DNA from: Faecalibaculum rodentium
Lineage (GTDB): Bacteria; Bacillota_I; Bacilli_A; Erysipelotrichales; Erysipelotrichaceae
NCBI RefSeq assembly: GCF_001564455.1
Contig: NZ_CP011391.1
Coordinates: 2,250,001-2,282,000, forward strand
Reading direction: 5' to 3'
DNA length: 32,000 bases
Shown: one piece after another, positions 1 through 6,000 of the stretch
How positions within the stretch are numbered: the stretch's first letter is position 1
Layout of the letters: each line of letters begins with the position of its first letter
Program-made: the position numbers

Positions 1-3000
1 CGGTGACGGCATTCTGCAGGCATTCTTCGAGAATCCCGGAGAATGGTATACTGAAAAAAACAGAGAGTATATGAAACAGCTGGTCAATCAGCCTGTTGCG
101 ACAATCCTGGGCGTCGAATTTGGCATTCCCCCGGAGAACGCCACAGATCTGCAGAAGGTTCTGTACAACGTCTTTCTGCTCCCGCACGAAGAGCGGGACT
201 ATGCCTACCTGGAAAGCCAGGGCATCCATTTAAACAAGAAGGAAAGAGAGGATATCAAAATTATGCAAAAGGAAAACAACATTTTCTACGCTGATGGCAA
301 AGATGCAGGACGTGCCGAGGGTATGATCGAAGGTCGTGCCGAAGGTATGATGGAAGGTCGTGCTGAAGGCAAACAGGAGGTTCTGAATCTTCTGAAATCC
401 ATCGACAGAAGCGCCTACGAAAAACTTGCTTCTCAACTTCAGTCTCAGTCTTCCAAATAATCAAAAGCTGCCCTTGTTCGGCGGGCAGCTTTTTCATCCC
501 ATCGCAATCTTTTCTCCCGTGGCACTGTTTCCCGGCTTCCGGCACTATCTGCAACAGTACTCCACCCCTGCATTTCGCCGTTTCAGAATGTTCAGCTCTG
601 CTGATCATTCTGAATGGGCGAAATGGGCGGTTTCGGCGGAATGAACGGAAGCAGTCGTCTCCACCAGCTGTGTCTGCTGTCTGCTCCCAGGAAATCCCGG
701 ACCAGTTTTCCCTTCTCATATCCCTGGTCCCAGAGCTCCTGCACACCTGCCGTTCCCCGACTCAGGGCCTGCACGCCATGATCATCGTCGGCGTAGATGG
801 ACAACAGCTTCCCCTCAGCTTCCAGCTGCCTGACCAGAGCCACGGCCTCGTTGTACCGGATCACATTTTCCCGCAGCGCTTTTGCCGCCCCCGGATACTT
901 CCAGTCAAAGAGCAGCGCCGCACTGTAAAACTTTTCCAGATCCGCTTCCTCCTGCAATGGGTAGGTGGACAGAACCACGATTTTGTCCGCCCCCTGCTCC
1001 AGGGCCTTCTTCACCGGGACCAGGTCGGCAATGCCGCCATCCAGGTACGGAATGTTGCCCACCAGATGCGGCGGACACGCCGGAGGCAGGCTGCTGGAGG
1101 CTTTCAGTATCTCCAGACCGTGTTTTTCCAGCATCCGTTTTGTGAAGTAGGCAGGATCCCCCGTGAAGGCATTGGTCGCCACAACCGTCAGACTGCTGTC
1201 GGCATCCAGAGCTTTGGTCAGCTTTTCGGAATCATTGTAGATTCGGTCAAAATCCACATAGGATCCCTTGGTGATGAAGTTGCTGAAGGAAAACACCTTT
1301 TTGCGCGCCTCGGGGTCCAGATAGAATGACCGGGAAGCCTCCATATCACCGGTGAGAAAATTCACAAGATTGGCGGCACCGGCGGATACCCCGTAACAGA
1401 GGTCGAAGGATATATGCTCATCCTGCAGACAGGCCAGGACTCCCGCAGCAAACGCCGCCTGCATCCCACCGCCCACATCAATGATGGCGGTCTTCAAAGC
1501 TGCTCCAGACTCCAGAGAATGCCCCGGGCGATCCGGCCAGCCGCATCCTGGAAATGATTGCCCTGATCCTGATGCAGCATGCAGACAATGCCCTCCTGCT
1601 CAAACTGCTGCTTCAGTTCCTCCATGCAGTCCCAGGTGGTCTGCAGCACGGGATTTTTCACCCGGGTTTCCTTATTCCCCAGTGACAGCCAGATCGCTGC
1701 GGGCTGTTTCAGGAAGGCATGGGTCTTCATATACTCCGTGAACCCGGGAAACCACACGGAACCCGAGGCGCACACCAGTGCATCATATGCACCCGCAACC
1801 GTGGGGGCAAAGAGAGAAAACAATCCTCCCATGGAATATCCCGCCAGGATCACCTTCGTGCTGCCGGTGAGTGTTCTGGCCCAGTCTGTCGTTTCGGCCA
1901 CGGTTTTCGCAAAGACCGGTCCCTGTCCGGTAAAATGGTCATCTTTCATCACCACCGGATCGTGAGCCCAGGGCGACAGATCCTCGTCCCATTCCAGATC
2001 CAGCGGCATCAGCACGTTCAGGGGCCGGTCCACCGCTTCGAGAATCACCTCCGTGCCCTGGGTGTGAAAAATGCACACGACCAGCGGCAGATTCTCTCCC
2101 TGTTCCTGCTGCCGCAGCAGAAACCGTCTGCCGTCAAAAAGCTTCACTGTTTCCATCATGTTCTGTTTCCCCTCAAGCCGGCTGCACGGTGGCCGGACGT
2201 TCGTCTGTTCTGTTTGGTTCGACTGCCATGATTGCCGGCAGATCCGTGAACCCCAGTGTCTCATACAATGGGCGCCCTTCTTCACTGGCCTCCAGCCAGA
2301 TCTTTTCCGCTCCCCAGGCGCGGGCCTGATCCATCAGCCAGTCCACCATGTCCCTGGCATGGCCCTGATGCCGGTGCTTTGGCCGCACATAAATATTCAT
2401 CAGGTACCCGCACCGGCCCGACGGGTTGTCGGGACTTGGCATTTCCTGCTGCAGGCAGATGCCACCGCAGCCGATGATCCGCTCCTTCCAGTCTCCGGCA
2501 CTTCCCCCCTCCTGCTCTCCCGCAGGATTTCCGGGTTCCTCCAGGGCAAAACAGGCAATATGTCCGCTGCCCAGCTGCCCCTGGTAATACTGGCGGCTGG
2601 CCGCACGCAGTCCGGACAGGTCCCGGCCCGGGAACACATGGTCCAGAACCTCCATGCGCCAGTCCAGCAGCGTCTCCATATCCCGCGGGGCAGCTTCCCG
2701 GATCATTGGCCATCCTCCCGGTCCTGAATGGTGTTTTTGTCCTCCCCCAGGGCATCCAGGGCTTCTTTGTCCACCTTGCCATTGGCCGTGCGCGGCAACG
2801 ACGCAAGGACCGTAAAGGACTCCGGAATCATGAAGGGCGTCAGATGCCGGGACAGGCACGACTTCAGCCGCTCCGTCACATCCCGCTCTGCCACAGGTGT
2901 CTGTTCATTCTCCGGATCCGGTTCCGGCACGATCCAGCCATGGAGATGGCTGCTGCCCTCCGGATCCATCCAGGTGGTGACCACCGCCTCCTGGACCCCG

Positions 3001-6000
3001 GGGCATTTTTCCATCACGCTTTCCACTTCCTCCGGCTCCACACGCTTGCCATAGACCATCACCTGACGGTCTTTGCGTCCCAGGAACACGAAATTGCCAT
3101 CCGGCAGCTGATATCCCAGGTCTCCGCTGTGATACATGTTGTGGTCAAACGCCAGGTTTTCCCGGGTATGGTCCCCAATGTATCCCGCTGACACCCCGTT
3201 GCCATAGATGCAGATCTCTCCCGTTGTGCCGATTGGTACCGGATTGCCGGCTTCATCCAGGATTTCCATCGAGGCGCCCAGAACAGGACGGCCAATGGGG
3301 TGGGATCCATCCGCCAGCGGCTGCTTTCCGCTGGCGCAGTAGTAACTGGCACAGACCGTGGTTTCGGAAGGCCCATAGGTGTTGTACACCGGGACCCTGT
3401 CGGCAATCGTGTCCATCTGGGAGTGATGCAGGGTATCCCCGCCGCTGATGAGGATCCGCAGGCGGGAAGGCACGAGCTTTTCGCTGTTCATCTGCGCCAC
3501 CAGCCACGGGAATCCCGAAATGAAGGTAATGCCGTGGTCTTCGCAGTACTGCATGCGTGCGTGGAATTCATCTGTATGCGGAATGGCGAGAGCTGCCCCG
3601 TTCAGCAGCGTGGTGAACACTTCCTCCACAAAGATGTCAAACGTGCACACCGATCCCTGCAGCATGATGTCCCCCGGCCCATTGTGAAATTCATGATGGA
3701 AAGCCCGCACATAGTGCATCAGGTTTCGCTGCAGCACACAGACGCCCTTGGGCCGGCCGGTGGATCCCGAGGTATACAGAATATAGGCAGGATCCTCCCC
3801 GCTCACGGCAGGCTGGCGTAAGTCATGATGCACCATCGGCAGTGTGGGGATCAGGGGCTTCACATCCGGAAGCAGCCGGTCTGTGTATGCCTTCTGTGTG
3901 ATCACTGTCCGGATCTCTGCCTCCTGGAGAATGTCGCGGATGCGCTCCACGGGAAAATCCGGTTCCATGGGCACATAGGCTTTGCCGGCTTTGAAAACCG
4001 CAAGCATGGAGGCAATCATGAGAATGGAATGATCCAGAATGATGCCGATTCGCGGCTCGTCTGGCAGAATCCCCGCGATGTCATTGGCCAGATCGTTCAG
4101 TTCCGAAAAAGTCCAGGGCCTGTTACCGTCCAGGACAGCCAGCTCGTCAGGCCACCGCGAAACAACCGCATCAAAGGCAGCCGGAACTGTATCGTATTTT
4201 GGGAGACTCATTGGTTTCATAGTATCAGTGTAGGAGCATGATTCCGTTTTTCGTCCTGTCATGCCCATTGCGCCGGTCCATGGTCCGGCAGGCATTCGGA
4301 ACAGGAAAGAGAAACCGCTTTACAGCCGGATGTCCGAAAGGGCCACTCTGTGTATGCAAAACCCCGCAGCACATGGAGAATGCACCGCGGGGGCTTGTGT
4401 GTATCTGAGACCGGATTCATTCTCCGGCGTGATGCTCTTCTAGCGAACTGCTGCGTCCAGGTGCAGGTCCCGGATTCTTGCATCGCGGCTCGCAGCCCGT
4501 TCCAGGCTGTTGTACCAGCAGATGCTTCCGTCCTGTTTGGAGCGGACGATGATTCTCGAATGCGCATCACGGCCGACAATGATCGAACCTGTCTCTGCCA
4601 TGATCTCGCTGATGTTCATGATTCATACTCCTTTCTTTCTTCTAAACTTGTTTATCTCATTATAGCGGGCATGAACCATGAACGGAATCAAACTGCCCTT
4701 TTCAGCCAGACAGTTGTCCATAATCGCTGAAAACAGACCTCATTCTGTATCAGACTGTACACAAGGCGCATAGCGGTCCATGAGTGCCCGGGCGCTCTTC
4801 ACCCCGTCAATGGCACTCGTCATGATACCGCCTGCATAGCCGCTGCCTTCTCCTGAGGGATAAATGCCTTCATCCCCCATGCGCGTGACTTTGTCCCGGG
4901 GAATCCGGATCGCACTGGAAGCCCGTGTTTCCACGCCGGTCATCGTGCCCTCCAGGAACCCGGGAACCTTGCGCTCGAAATCCAGCAGCCCCTGATGCAG
5001 GGCGTGGTTGACTTCATCGGAAAACAGTGTGTTCAGATCCGCCGGAACGGTCCCCGGTTCATAGGTCGGTCTGGTGGACAGGCTTTCACTGACGACACCC
5101 TCGAGATAGTCCGCGGCTTTCTGCACCGGGGCGCGGTAGTCCGGCGACAGGGCAAAGGCCCGTTTCTCGATTTCCTCCTGATAGGCCAGGCCGTCAAAGA
5201 GCCCCGGTCCGTAGTCAGATTCATTGACCTGCACCAGCAGGGCGCTGTTGGCGTTCTCACCCGCGCGGTCGGCATAGGACATGCCGTTGACCACCAGCTG
5301 GCCGGGCTGGGCACTGGAGGCAATGACATAGCCGCCGGGGCACATGCAGAAGGTGTAGATGCCCTTTCCGTTGTCGGCCATAGCCGTCAGGGTGTACCGG
5401 GCGGGAATCAGCCGGGGATCGTCCTTGAAATCATGGAGCATGGCCTCGTTGATGAAGCGCTGGGGATGCTCGATCCGGACTCCCACCTGGAACGGCTTGC
5501 TTTCCATGTGAATGCCGTCTTCATGCAGCTGGCGGAGGGTGTCGCTTGCCGAATGCCCCAGTGCCAGGATCAGGGCCTGACAGGGTTCCCACCGGCCGTT
5601 GACGTTGATTGCCGTCAGTCTGTCGTCCTCGATCTTCACTTCCTCCAGCCTGGCCCCGAAGCGGATCTCGCCCCCGAGTTCCAGGATCCGCCGCCGGATG
5701 CTCTGGATGATGGCCTCAAAGGCATCCGTGCCAATGTGCGGATAGGCATCCACGAGAATGTCCAAAGACGCCCCATGGGCATGCAAGGTCTCCAGGAGCT
5801 CATCCACCAGGGGATCGCGGCTGCGGGTGGTCAGCTTGCCATCGGAGAATGCCCCGGCTCCTCCTTCACCGAACTGGACATTGGATTCCGGATCCAGCTC
5901 TCCGGTTTTCCAGAAATGATCCACGTCCTGCCGGCGCTGTTCGATTTTCTGTCCCCGCTCGAGCACAATGGGGCGGTACCCGTGTTCTGCAAGGTCCAGA

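Follow-up and report, generated by a model that had tools for sequence, protein, structure and literature searches.

What becomes of an amino acid that has been activated by an adenylation enzyme when there is no carrier protein to receive it? This question is raised by a group of four genes on the minus strand of a 32-kb stretch of DNA from Faecalibaculum rodentium (NZ_CP011391.1, positions 2,250,001-2,282,000; hereinafter the window, on which the coordinates below are based unless a related locus is named). These genes encode an adenylation enzyme of the nonribosomal peptide synthetase (NRPS) type (hereinafter the A enzyme; 4220..2703, an open reading frame (ORF) of 505 amino acids), an acetyltransferase of the GNAT superfamily (2706..2173, 177 amino acids), a short alpha/beta hydrolase (hereinafter EST; 2159..1494, 221 amino acids) and a patatin (1497..592, 301 amino acids). 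In a preliminary description of the window, all four were considered to comprise a candidate pathway for an aminoacyl-lipid or a lipoamino acid. The comparative analysis described here leads to a different delineation of the system, namely, a widespread and mobile cassette that appears to combine a stand-alone, NRPS-like A enzyme with a GNAT protein in place of the thiolation and condensation domains. The parts come from known superfamilies, and the combination is apparently new.

Conservation of the A-GNAT pair and its hydrolase

A scan of a one-genome-per-species collection with family-specific peptide patterns yielded at least 564 confirmed relatives among the matches listed. The taxa represented include Lachnospiraceae, Oscillospiraceae, Erysipelotrichaceae, Faecalibacterium, Blautia, Eggerthellaceae, Prevotella and other Bacteroidales, Treponema and Selenomonadaceae. 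Gene neighborhoods were compared across 82 related loci, that is, the best 80 of these at least 564 relatives and two metagenomic loci, by a six-frame scan with the four window proteins; adjacency was counted from the coordinates of the domain hits, and greedy ORF calling produced antisense artefacts in loci with high GC content. The GNAT gene is located immediately downstream of the A gene in 79 of the 82 loci, including three in which both are contained in one ORF, and an additional locus (L038) is uninformative on this point because the contig ends 201 bp past the A gene. The EST gene is found nearby in 62 loci, upstream and on the same strand in 43, downstream and on the same strand in 15, and on the opposite strand in 4, and in one of the 82 loci, that of Absicoccus porci (L080, 7269-9446), EST and A form a single ORF. 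The conserved unit is the A-GNAT pair, usually accompanied by EST, and the pair itself is essentially obligate. The functional link between the A enzyme and GNAT that had been surmised from the window is borne out by this adjacency and by the three fusions; all four genes together, however, do not form a conserved set, as the patatin gene follows the cassette in only one of the 82 loci.

The fused forms are particularly informative with regard to the architecture of the system. Single A-GNAT proteins of 642-648 amino acids are encoded in three lineages (L003, 8001-9947; L033; L076), and fused proteins of this kind (P0044, P0085 and P0108) also turned up in the protein homology search. In these fusions, Pfam detects the AMP-binding and Acetyltransf domains alone, and the GNAT domain follows directly after the A10 motif. 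Since the length of the fusion equals the sum of A (~490 residues) and GNAT (~155 residues), there is no room for a carrier domain.

The same conclusion follows from the inspection of the gene neighborhoods. A motif search, as opposed to a search with hidden Markov models (HMMs), for the carrier signature G-x-[DNH]-S-[LIVMF] yielded no credible ORF with this signature in the window, whichever frame was read, and a search of the same kind, again without HMMs, found no motif of a peptidyl or acyl carrier protein (PCP or ACP) in a plausible context within 5 kb of the A gene in the 82 loci. The absence of a carrier, noticed in the preliminary description for the four-gene group, thus extends to the window and to the neighborhoods of all related loci within the reach of a motif search, although a carrier might be encoded at a distant site in the genome. 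With no thiolation (PCP) domain and no DltC fused to or located beside the A enzyme, the cassette represents neither a canonical NRPS module nor a Dlt-type system. The earlier impression that this is not a described pathway stands as well: searches of full-text literature, NCBIfam and PADLOC turned up no paper, no curated family and no defence model describing the cassette, and a phage collection yielded just unrelated NRPS domains with identity of 33% or less.

The enzymes of the cassette and the patatin of Faecalibaculum

The A enzyme consists of the A1-A10 core alone, with Pfam detecting the AMP-binding and AMP-binding_C domains and nothing else, and the protein terminates approximately 23 residues past the A10 lysine, without a thiolation domain. 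It belongs to the NCBIfam family TIGR01733, 'amino acid adenylation domain' (331.1 bits, with a cut-off of 317.4), and the closest solved relatives are the adenylation domains of the NRPS LgrA, ApnA, McyA, TycA and GrsA. The core motifs recognized by reading, namely, YTSGSTGRPKG (A3), FD195IF (A4), NTYGPSE (A5), HSGDLG (A7), GRKDRQVMVYGKRVE and NGK482VD, consist of residues that are invariant across the family. The initial identification of an adenylation domain of the amino acid type with an aspartate that binds the alpha-amino group is corroborated by the TIGR01733 score and by the FD195IF motif. The A enzyme scores far under the cut-offs of the NCBIfam models for DltA and acyl-CoA ligases. 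The comparison with DltA is instructive because this protein is also a stand-alone amino acid-adenylating enzyme of about 500 residues and because the DltA model NF003417 matches the A enzyme over its full length; the scores, however, are 224 and 217 bits, whereas the cut-offs are 476 and 560, so the A enzyme is not a DltA. Furthermore, the Dlt system includes DltB, DltC and DltD, none of which is among the conserved neighbors of the cassette; the pocket of the A enzyme is unlike the D-Ala type, and its partner is a GNAT protein.

The specificity-determining pocket of the A enzyme was mapped through a search with a pocket fragment, in which C192 (fragment residue 8) aligned to position 232 of GrsA, together with the A4 and A5 motifs and the GrsA sequence. 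At the ten Stachelhaus positions in GrsA numbering, the resulting code is DIESIGTVCK (D195, I196, E199, S235, I258, G260, T281, V289, C290 and K482). Of 83 proteins of the family, 80 have exactly this code, and each of the remaining three carries one conservative change; with the code being nearly invariant, a single substrate for the entire family is therefore to be expected. An aspartate at pocket position 235 signifies a free alpha-amino group on the substrate, and a glutamate at position 239, on the pocket floor, combined with small residues at positions 301, 322, 330 and 331, is the architecture seen in adenylation domains for basic amino acids. With the presumed lysine code of BacB-M1 from the bacitracin synthetase (DAESIGSVCK), the family code agrees at 8 of 10 positions, and it is also compatible with the lysine code of pyoverdine, presumably DGEDHGTVVK; neither string was confirmed by the full-text string search. 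The pocket code called for at the outset thus appears to be lysine-like by these presumed codes, and the predicted substrate of the A enzyme is a basic amino acid, probably L-lysine.

The GNAT protein consists of a minimal domain that is readily recognized as a member of the superfamily, with a score of 53.4 bits for Acetyltransf_1 (PF00583; cut-off 20.7) and with the R-x-x-G-x-(G/A) motif that contacts the pyrophosphate of coenzyme A (CoA) present as R112-H-Q-G115-H-A in the window protein, the arginine and the glycine being conserved throughout the family. The additional motifs that characterize the family are GCGG.C, EMPSPDNP.G, YLMNIY, R..G.(G/A) and LY...GF. In a family-profile search, by far the closest solved structure was that of an uncharacterised acetyltransferase (3mgd; 5e-27), and the further solved relatives, PaiA, GNA1, polyamine acetyltransferase, SSAT2 and RimI, are ordinary acetyltransferases of small amines or protein N-termini. 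The similarity to 3mgd, a structural-genomics 'predicted acetyltransferase', spans the whole domain and includes the equivalent of the EMPSPDNP.G loop and the YxxNxY strand, but 3mgd lacks the conserved cysteines of GCGG.C. The window protein additionally contains a Gly/Glu-rich insertion of 20 residues, EEPGNPAGEQEGGSAGDWKE (residues 56-75, E56-E75; nt 2541..2482, minus strand). This insertion, singled out as unusual in the preliminary description, is real; it is missing from all 22 aligned homologs, and the GNAT protein of a second Faecalibaculum species (L005) has an insertion at the same position with an unlike sequence, so we regard it as a variable, lineage-specific loop found only in Faecalibaculum.

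EST is a short alpha/beta serine hydrolase, with family members of 221-231 residues in which G107-Y-S109, E164 and H202 are invariant in the family alignments. PF00756 is matched by 17 of the 19 aligned family members and is the precomputed Pfam assignment of all 120 listed relatives. When the family profile was used as the query, the best solved matches were siderophore esterases, namely, BesA, EstB, Cee (the Campylobacter enterobactin esterase), IroE and Fes. The AlphaFold2 model of EST (pLDDT 90.2, pTM 0.90) gave a concordant result: in a Foldseek search of the PDB, the top matches were the fungal siderophore hydrolases EstB and EstA and an IroE-like hydrolase, followed by acylaminoacyl peptidases. 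These relatives by profile and fold act on esters of N-acylated serine, threonine or ornithine units, including N2-acetylated fusarinine. The profile matches to siderophore esterases are located around the nucleophile elbow and the S-x-S-x-W motif, but EST is 50-80 residues shorter than BesA, IroE, Fes, Cee and EstB/EstA. By profile and by predicted structure, then, EST probably belongs to the PF00756 / IroE-BesA-EstB lineage of siderophore esterases, and nothing obtained here marks it as a lipid-directed hydrolase. No genes for siderophore synthesis or uptake were found among the recurrent neighbors of the related loci. The possibility that EST is an S-formyl-thiol hydrolase, which was suggested by the HxlR-type regulators described below, was dismissed as the closest match because no structure of esterase D or S-formylglutathione hydrolase was among the profile matches.

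The patatin is a genuine member of its family (PF01734, 67.1 bits with a cut-off of 27.7; 31 bits for a DUF6363 tail), with both residues of the catalytic dyad recognizable by reading, the serine in GVSAG (GxSxG) and the aspartate in LDGGIAD (DGG). The GGG oxyanion motif already starts at residue 9, which leaves the TTG codon as the only possible start. The single locus among the 82 in which a patatin gene follows the cassette is that of the second Faecalibaculum species (L005), which is syntenic with the window over the whole region, and the patatin gene is translationally coupled in both species. The patatin is a Faecalibaculum-only addition to the cassette. Of the two lipid-directed hydrolases initially postulated, one, the patatin-like phospholipase, is upheld by Pfam and by its motifs, and the other, EST, appears to belong elsewhere by both profile and fold.

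Operon layout, mobility and neighboring genes

In the window, the four minus-strand ORFs are joined as originally reported: the ATG of the GNAT gene overlaps the stop codon of the A gene as ATGA, a gap of 13 nt separates GNAT from EST, and the TTG start of the patatin gene overlaps the EST stop codon as TTGA. The group is bracketed by terminator-like hairpins, at the 5' side by one with a 13-bp stem and a T-run on the minus strand (4392..4362) that closes an upstream small ORF, and at the 3' side, after the patatin gene, by one at ~484..468 that the terminator scan called on the plus strand; read on the minus strand, as gctgcccgccgaacaagggcagctttt, it likewise terminates in a T-run. As the hairpins flank all four genes, a single transcription unit of four genes fits this arrangement. 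The nearest database proteins, with 98% identity, are from Faecalibaculum rodentium.

Several lines of evidence indicate that the cassette is mobile. A segment of 3.7-4.5 kb with 98-99% nucleotide identity is common to six loci (L006, at about 6766-11290, L009 and L011-L014), which come from Faecalibacterium prausnitzii, Blautia faecis, B. wexlerae, B. luti, Ruminococcus sp. and Gallintestinimicrobium. The segment encompasses EST, A and GNAT followed by a gene for 'radical SAM mobile pair protein B' (TIGR04470; frameshifted in L006); it is preceded by a truncated gene resembling that of mobile pair protein A and by an HxlR remnant, and in related metagenomic contigs, TnpV is encoded downstream. 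Such identity across genera, together with the mobile-element genes, points to recent horizontal transfer. In addition, a search of plasmids detected one family member on a 344-kb megaplasmid of Clostridium estertheticum, beside efflux transporters and a relaxase; the names assigned there by the NCBI pipeline are generic.

A regulator of the HxlR type (DUF24), with a CPV...GKWK motif, is encoded in 24 of the related loci, usually in the divergent orientation and immediately upstream of EST (for example, in L010, L016, L028, L040, L056 and L083), and in L033, L076 and L079 between GNAT and EST within the cassette. In about a quarter of the loci, an adjacent HxlR-type regulator is accordingly positioned such that it could control the cassette. 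A T-box in L072 belongs to a distant MetY-like gene. The other recurrent neighbors encode the radical-SAM mobile pair, MarR regulators, ABC, MATE and DHA2 exporters, Fpg, SIR2, macro-domain and TIGR02452 proteins.

In a metagenome-assembled genome (MAG) of Lachnospiraceae (L070, 6662-10442), an A gene without GNAT or EST lies between genes for an O-acetylhomoserine sulfhydrylase-like MetY and a cysteine synthase-like CysK; the same MAG harbors a second, complete EST-A-GNAT copy (L035). In L073, CysK is divergent from A. A general link to sulfur amino acids was rejected, given that CysK or MetY adjoins A in only 2-3 of the 82 loci, too few to be meaningful, although L070 provides a weak hint.

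Several other features of the window deserve mention. Upstream of the operon, a 59-amino acid ORF beginning with MNISEIMAETGSIIVGRDAHSR (4440-4619, minus strand) is preceded by a good ribosome-binding site and followed by a terminator of its own. Its counterpart in the second Faecalibaculum species (L005, 7662-7838) shows 96.6% identity, whereas the flanking A enzyme is just 66% identical there; the ORF matches no Pfam or NCBIfam family and has no homolog in the remaining related loci. Near the other end of the operon, a 129-amino acid ORF (71-460, plus strand) contains a tandem GRAEGM(I/M)E repeat and has no Pfam match; it aligns, at ~80% nucleotide identity, with the region 3' of the patatin gene in L005. 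Further upstream, a VanG-like set of genes for D-Ala-D-Ser (6611-11275, minus strand), which overlap end to end, encodes an 820-amino acid MurF-Ddl fusion (8813-11275) with a Ddl half that best matches the model of the D-alanine--D-serine ligase VanG (397 bits, under the cut-off of 495), a racemase (7620-8819) for which the top match is the VanT-G catalytic subunit (414 bits, cut-off 460) and a 342-amino acid membrane protein (6611-7639) that matches the VanT membrane domain (1e-43); judging from these similarities, Faecalibaculum may have intrinsic D-Ala-D-Ser termini in its peptidoglycan. A stretch of low GC content at 13000-16000 (46-51% compared to ~60% elsewhere) includes a gene for an IS110-family transposase (13943-15382, minus strand).

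Possible functions of the cassette

The reading that we favor, with a probability of about 40%, is that the cassette is a carrier-free, NRPS-like ligase that makes a lysyl or N-acyl-lysyl amide or ester, possibly via lysyl-CoA. Under this model, the A enzyme would adenylate a basic alpha-amino acid, most likely L-lysine, with Asp195 holding the alpha-amine and Glu199 the side-chain amine. In the absence of a carrier, the lysyl moiety of lysyl-AMP would then pass to free CoA or pantetheine, or else directly from the adenylate to an acceptor bound by GNAT, a transfer with which the location of GNAT at the thiolation-domain position of the fusions is in accord. GNAT would form the N-acyl bond, either by joining lysyl to an amine acceptor, in a carrier-free variation on the Ebony reaction, or by N-acetylating the activated lysyl product, and EST would hydrolyze the resulting lysyl or N-acyl-lysyl ester or thioester, in a step of release, editing or recycling.

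There are precedents for parts of this scheme. DltA and other homologs of adenylation domains can take free CoA instead of a carrier and display aminoacyl-CoA synthetase activity (PMC4176424), and the Burkholderia lipopeptide AFC-BC11 has been suggested to be built in part from L-Lys-S-CoA, the source of which is not known (PMC12186527). A further case is Ebony, the beta-alanyl-amine synthase of Drosophila, in which an NRPS-type A-PCP unit is coupled to an amine-selecting, GNAT-fold domain that replaces the condensation domain, so that a single amide bond is formed (PMC10510592, PMC8072286). The A-GNAT family is not of the Ebony type, however, in that Ebony has a phosphopantetheinylated carrier between the two domains and uses beta-alanine rather than the predicted lysine-type alpha-amino acid, and the likeness is one of domain order. 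The same logic, the pairing of an ATP-dependent ligase with a GNAT that carries out the last step toward an N-acylated small molecule, is embodied in mammalian glycine conjugation (ACSM/GLYAT) and in mycothiol synthesis (MshC/MshD). Here, too, the resemblance is of logic, with no claim of homology: ACSM is a fatty-acid ligase and MshC is related to aminoacyl-tRNA synthetases, whereas the ligase of the cassette is of the NRPS type and activates an alpha-amino acid.

A more specific version of the scheme, which we consider rather unlikely, is that A-GNAT is an amide or peptide synthase in which CoA, free or held by GNAT, replaces the thiolation domain, with lysyl-CoA donated to an amine or thiol acceptor and EST editing or releasing the product; if so, hundreds of species of gut anaerobes would carry, on mobile elements, the genes for a lysine-derived metabolite that has not yet been described. 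One possibility for such a product is an electrophile-responsive compound under HxlR control, for example, a low-molecular-weight thiol of the Lys-Cys type, at which the MetY-A-CysK arrangement of L070 weakly hints.

A number of observations weigh against the favored reading. Both the acceptor and the product, as well as the sequence of steps, are inferred, and none of the results shows lysyl transfer, a CoA intermediate or an ester substrate. The assignment of lysine relies on presumed codes, for which a full-text literature search gave no match. The EST protein of the window itself falls under the PF00756 threshold, with Abhydrolase matches in Pfam that are also sub-threshold, and its matches by fold are moderate, with TM-scores of 0.6-0.7 and 12-17% identity in the fold alignments. 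GNAT is a minimal enzyme of 155 residues, and its nearest characterised relatives are acetyl-CoA-dependent acetyltransferases of polyamines, glucosamine and N-termini; since these are ordinary acetyltransferases, plain acetylation is favored over aminoacyl transfer. Clustering of the neighbors revealed no conserved gene for substrate supply, biosynthesis or tailoring beside the cassette, and Rfam at gathering thresholds detected no riboswitch or T-box adjoining the cassette, either in the window or in 25 related loci. Finally, 20 of the 82 loci lack EST within ~8 kb and, at two well-flanked loci (L070 and L077), A occurs without GNAT, which implies that the enzymes can act without every partner being encoded nearby.

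Alternative explanations, not all of which are mutually exclusive with the carrier-free ligase or with one another, differ mostly in the role that they assign to GNAT and EST. If plain acetylation is taken at face value, the A enzyme alone could ligate lysine to an acceptor, in the manner of the ANL amide bond synthetases, with GNAT masking an amine of the substrate or product by acetylation and EST taking off the acyl or ester group. Acetyl-mask and unmask schemes operate with pac/napH for puromycin and with pat/bah for bialaphos. The characterised relatives of GNAT are, indeed, acetyl-CoA-dependent N-acetyltransferases of small amines (PaiA, GNA1, polyamine acetyltransferase, SSAT2 and RimI), and among the fold matches of EST are acylaminoacyl peptidases and an esterase of N2-acetylated fusarinine. 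However, no further gene for biosynthesis, export or immunity is conserved with the trio, and this logic does not require that A and GNAT are fused at the thiolation-domain position. We consider such a protective role rather unlikely. Acetylation might instead be directed at the A enzyme itself: it is well established that GNAT proteins can control ANL enzymes of the AMP-forming kind (AcsA/AcuA, Pat), and K482, the A10 lysine in PRTANGK, is found in the P-x4-G-K context, so a GNAT similar to Pat or AcuA could switch the A enzyme off by modifying this residue. We regard such regulation as improbable, given that no NCBIfam or solved-structure match to AcuA or Pat was obtained, that the neighborhoods lack a conserved deacetylase (SIR2 is encoded in only 5 loci), and that EST is left unexplained; the near-universal adjacency, with ATGA coupling in the window, and the covalent fusion of A and GNAT fit a stoichiometric pathway partner better.

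The other two alternatives derive from the company that the genes keep. The near-identical copies in different bacterial families, the megaplasmid copy, the adjoining TnpV, relaxase and 'mobile pair' genes, and the recurrence of HxlR and MarR regulators and of MATE, ABC and DHA2 exporters among the neighbors would all be expected of a detoxification or resistance cassette that modifies a lysine-like or amine-bearing toxic compound, be it an antibiotic, an antimetabolite or an electrophile adduct, and that spreads under selection in the gut. We nevertheless consider this explanation distinctly unlikely. PADLOC defence models matched none of the four window proteins nor the Blautia-type esterase, with only weak matches for the neighboring radical SAM proteins, and the matches to resistance families in NCBIfam were only weak GNAT ones far under the cut-offs; moreover, an invariant pocket for an alpha-amino acid suits a metabolite better than diverse xenobiotics, and we know of no precedent for an amino acid-adenylating enzyme in drug inactivation. 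The original proposal of an aminoacyl-lipid or lipoamino acid pathway, in which the four genes would produce or modify, for example, a lysyl ester of a membrane lipid and the two hydrolases would act on acyl chains, appears very improbable. In its favor, an A enzyme of the lysine type would be suited to a cationic head group, and two Faecalibaculum species have the patatin gene coupled in translation to the cassette, but this gene follows the cassette in none of the other related loci, EST appears to be of the siderophore-esterase lineage and not a lipase, and the recurrent neighbors include no conserved membrane protein, flippase or domain similar to MprF. In particular, the aminoacyl-transferase and flippase domains of the tRNA-dependent, MprF-type aminoacyl-lipid synthases are found neither in the four proteins nor among these neighbors. 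Amino acid activation, the connection between A and GNAT, and the absence of a carrier, then, carry over from the preliminary description; the lipid acceptor does not, because the core proteins are small, with a catalytic Pfam domain only, and because the neighbors are regulators, exporters and mobile genes. A role in aminoacyl-lipid metabolism that is restricted to Faecalibaculum is conceivable, although only gene adjacency speaks for it.

If the carrier-free ligase is what the cassette encodes, the coupling of an NRPS adenylation domain to a GNAT without a carrier would amount to a minimal route to amino acid amides or esters, one that genome-mining rules miss because they look for A-T-C modules. 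It may also supply an enzymatic source of aminoacyl-CoA species, such as lysyl-CoA, that are invoked in biosynthesis without a known origin. Although the lipid angle is not supported, the cassette is directly testable, widespread and mobile: several hundred or more species of anaerobes from the gut and rumen carry it, among them abundant human commensals such as Faecalibacterium prausnitzii and Blautia, and it has spread recently between these species. Conceivably, its product is a common but unrecognised gut metabolite or, alternatively, the cassette could confer a resistance or detoxification trait on these bacteria.

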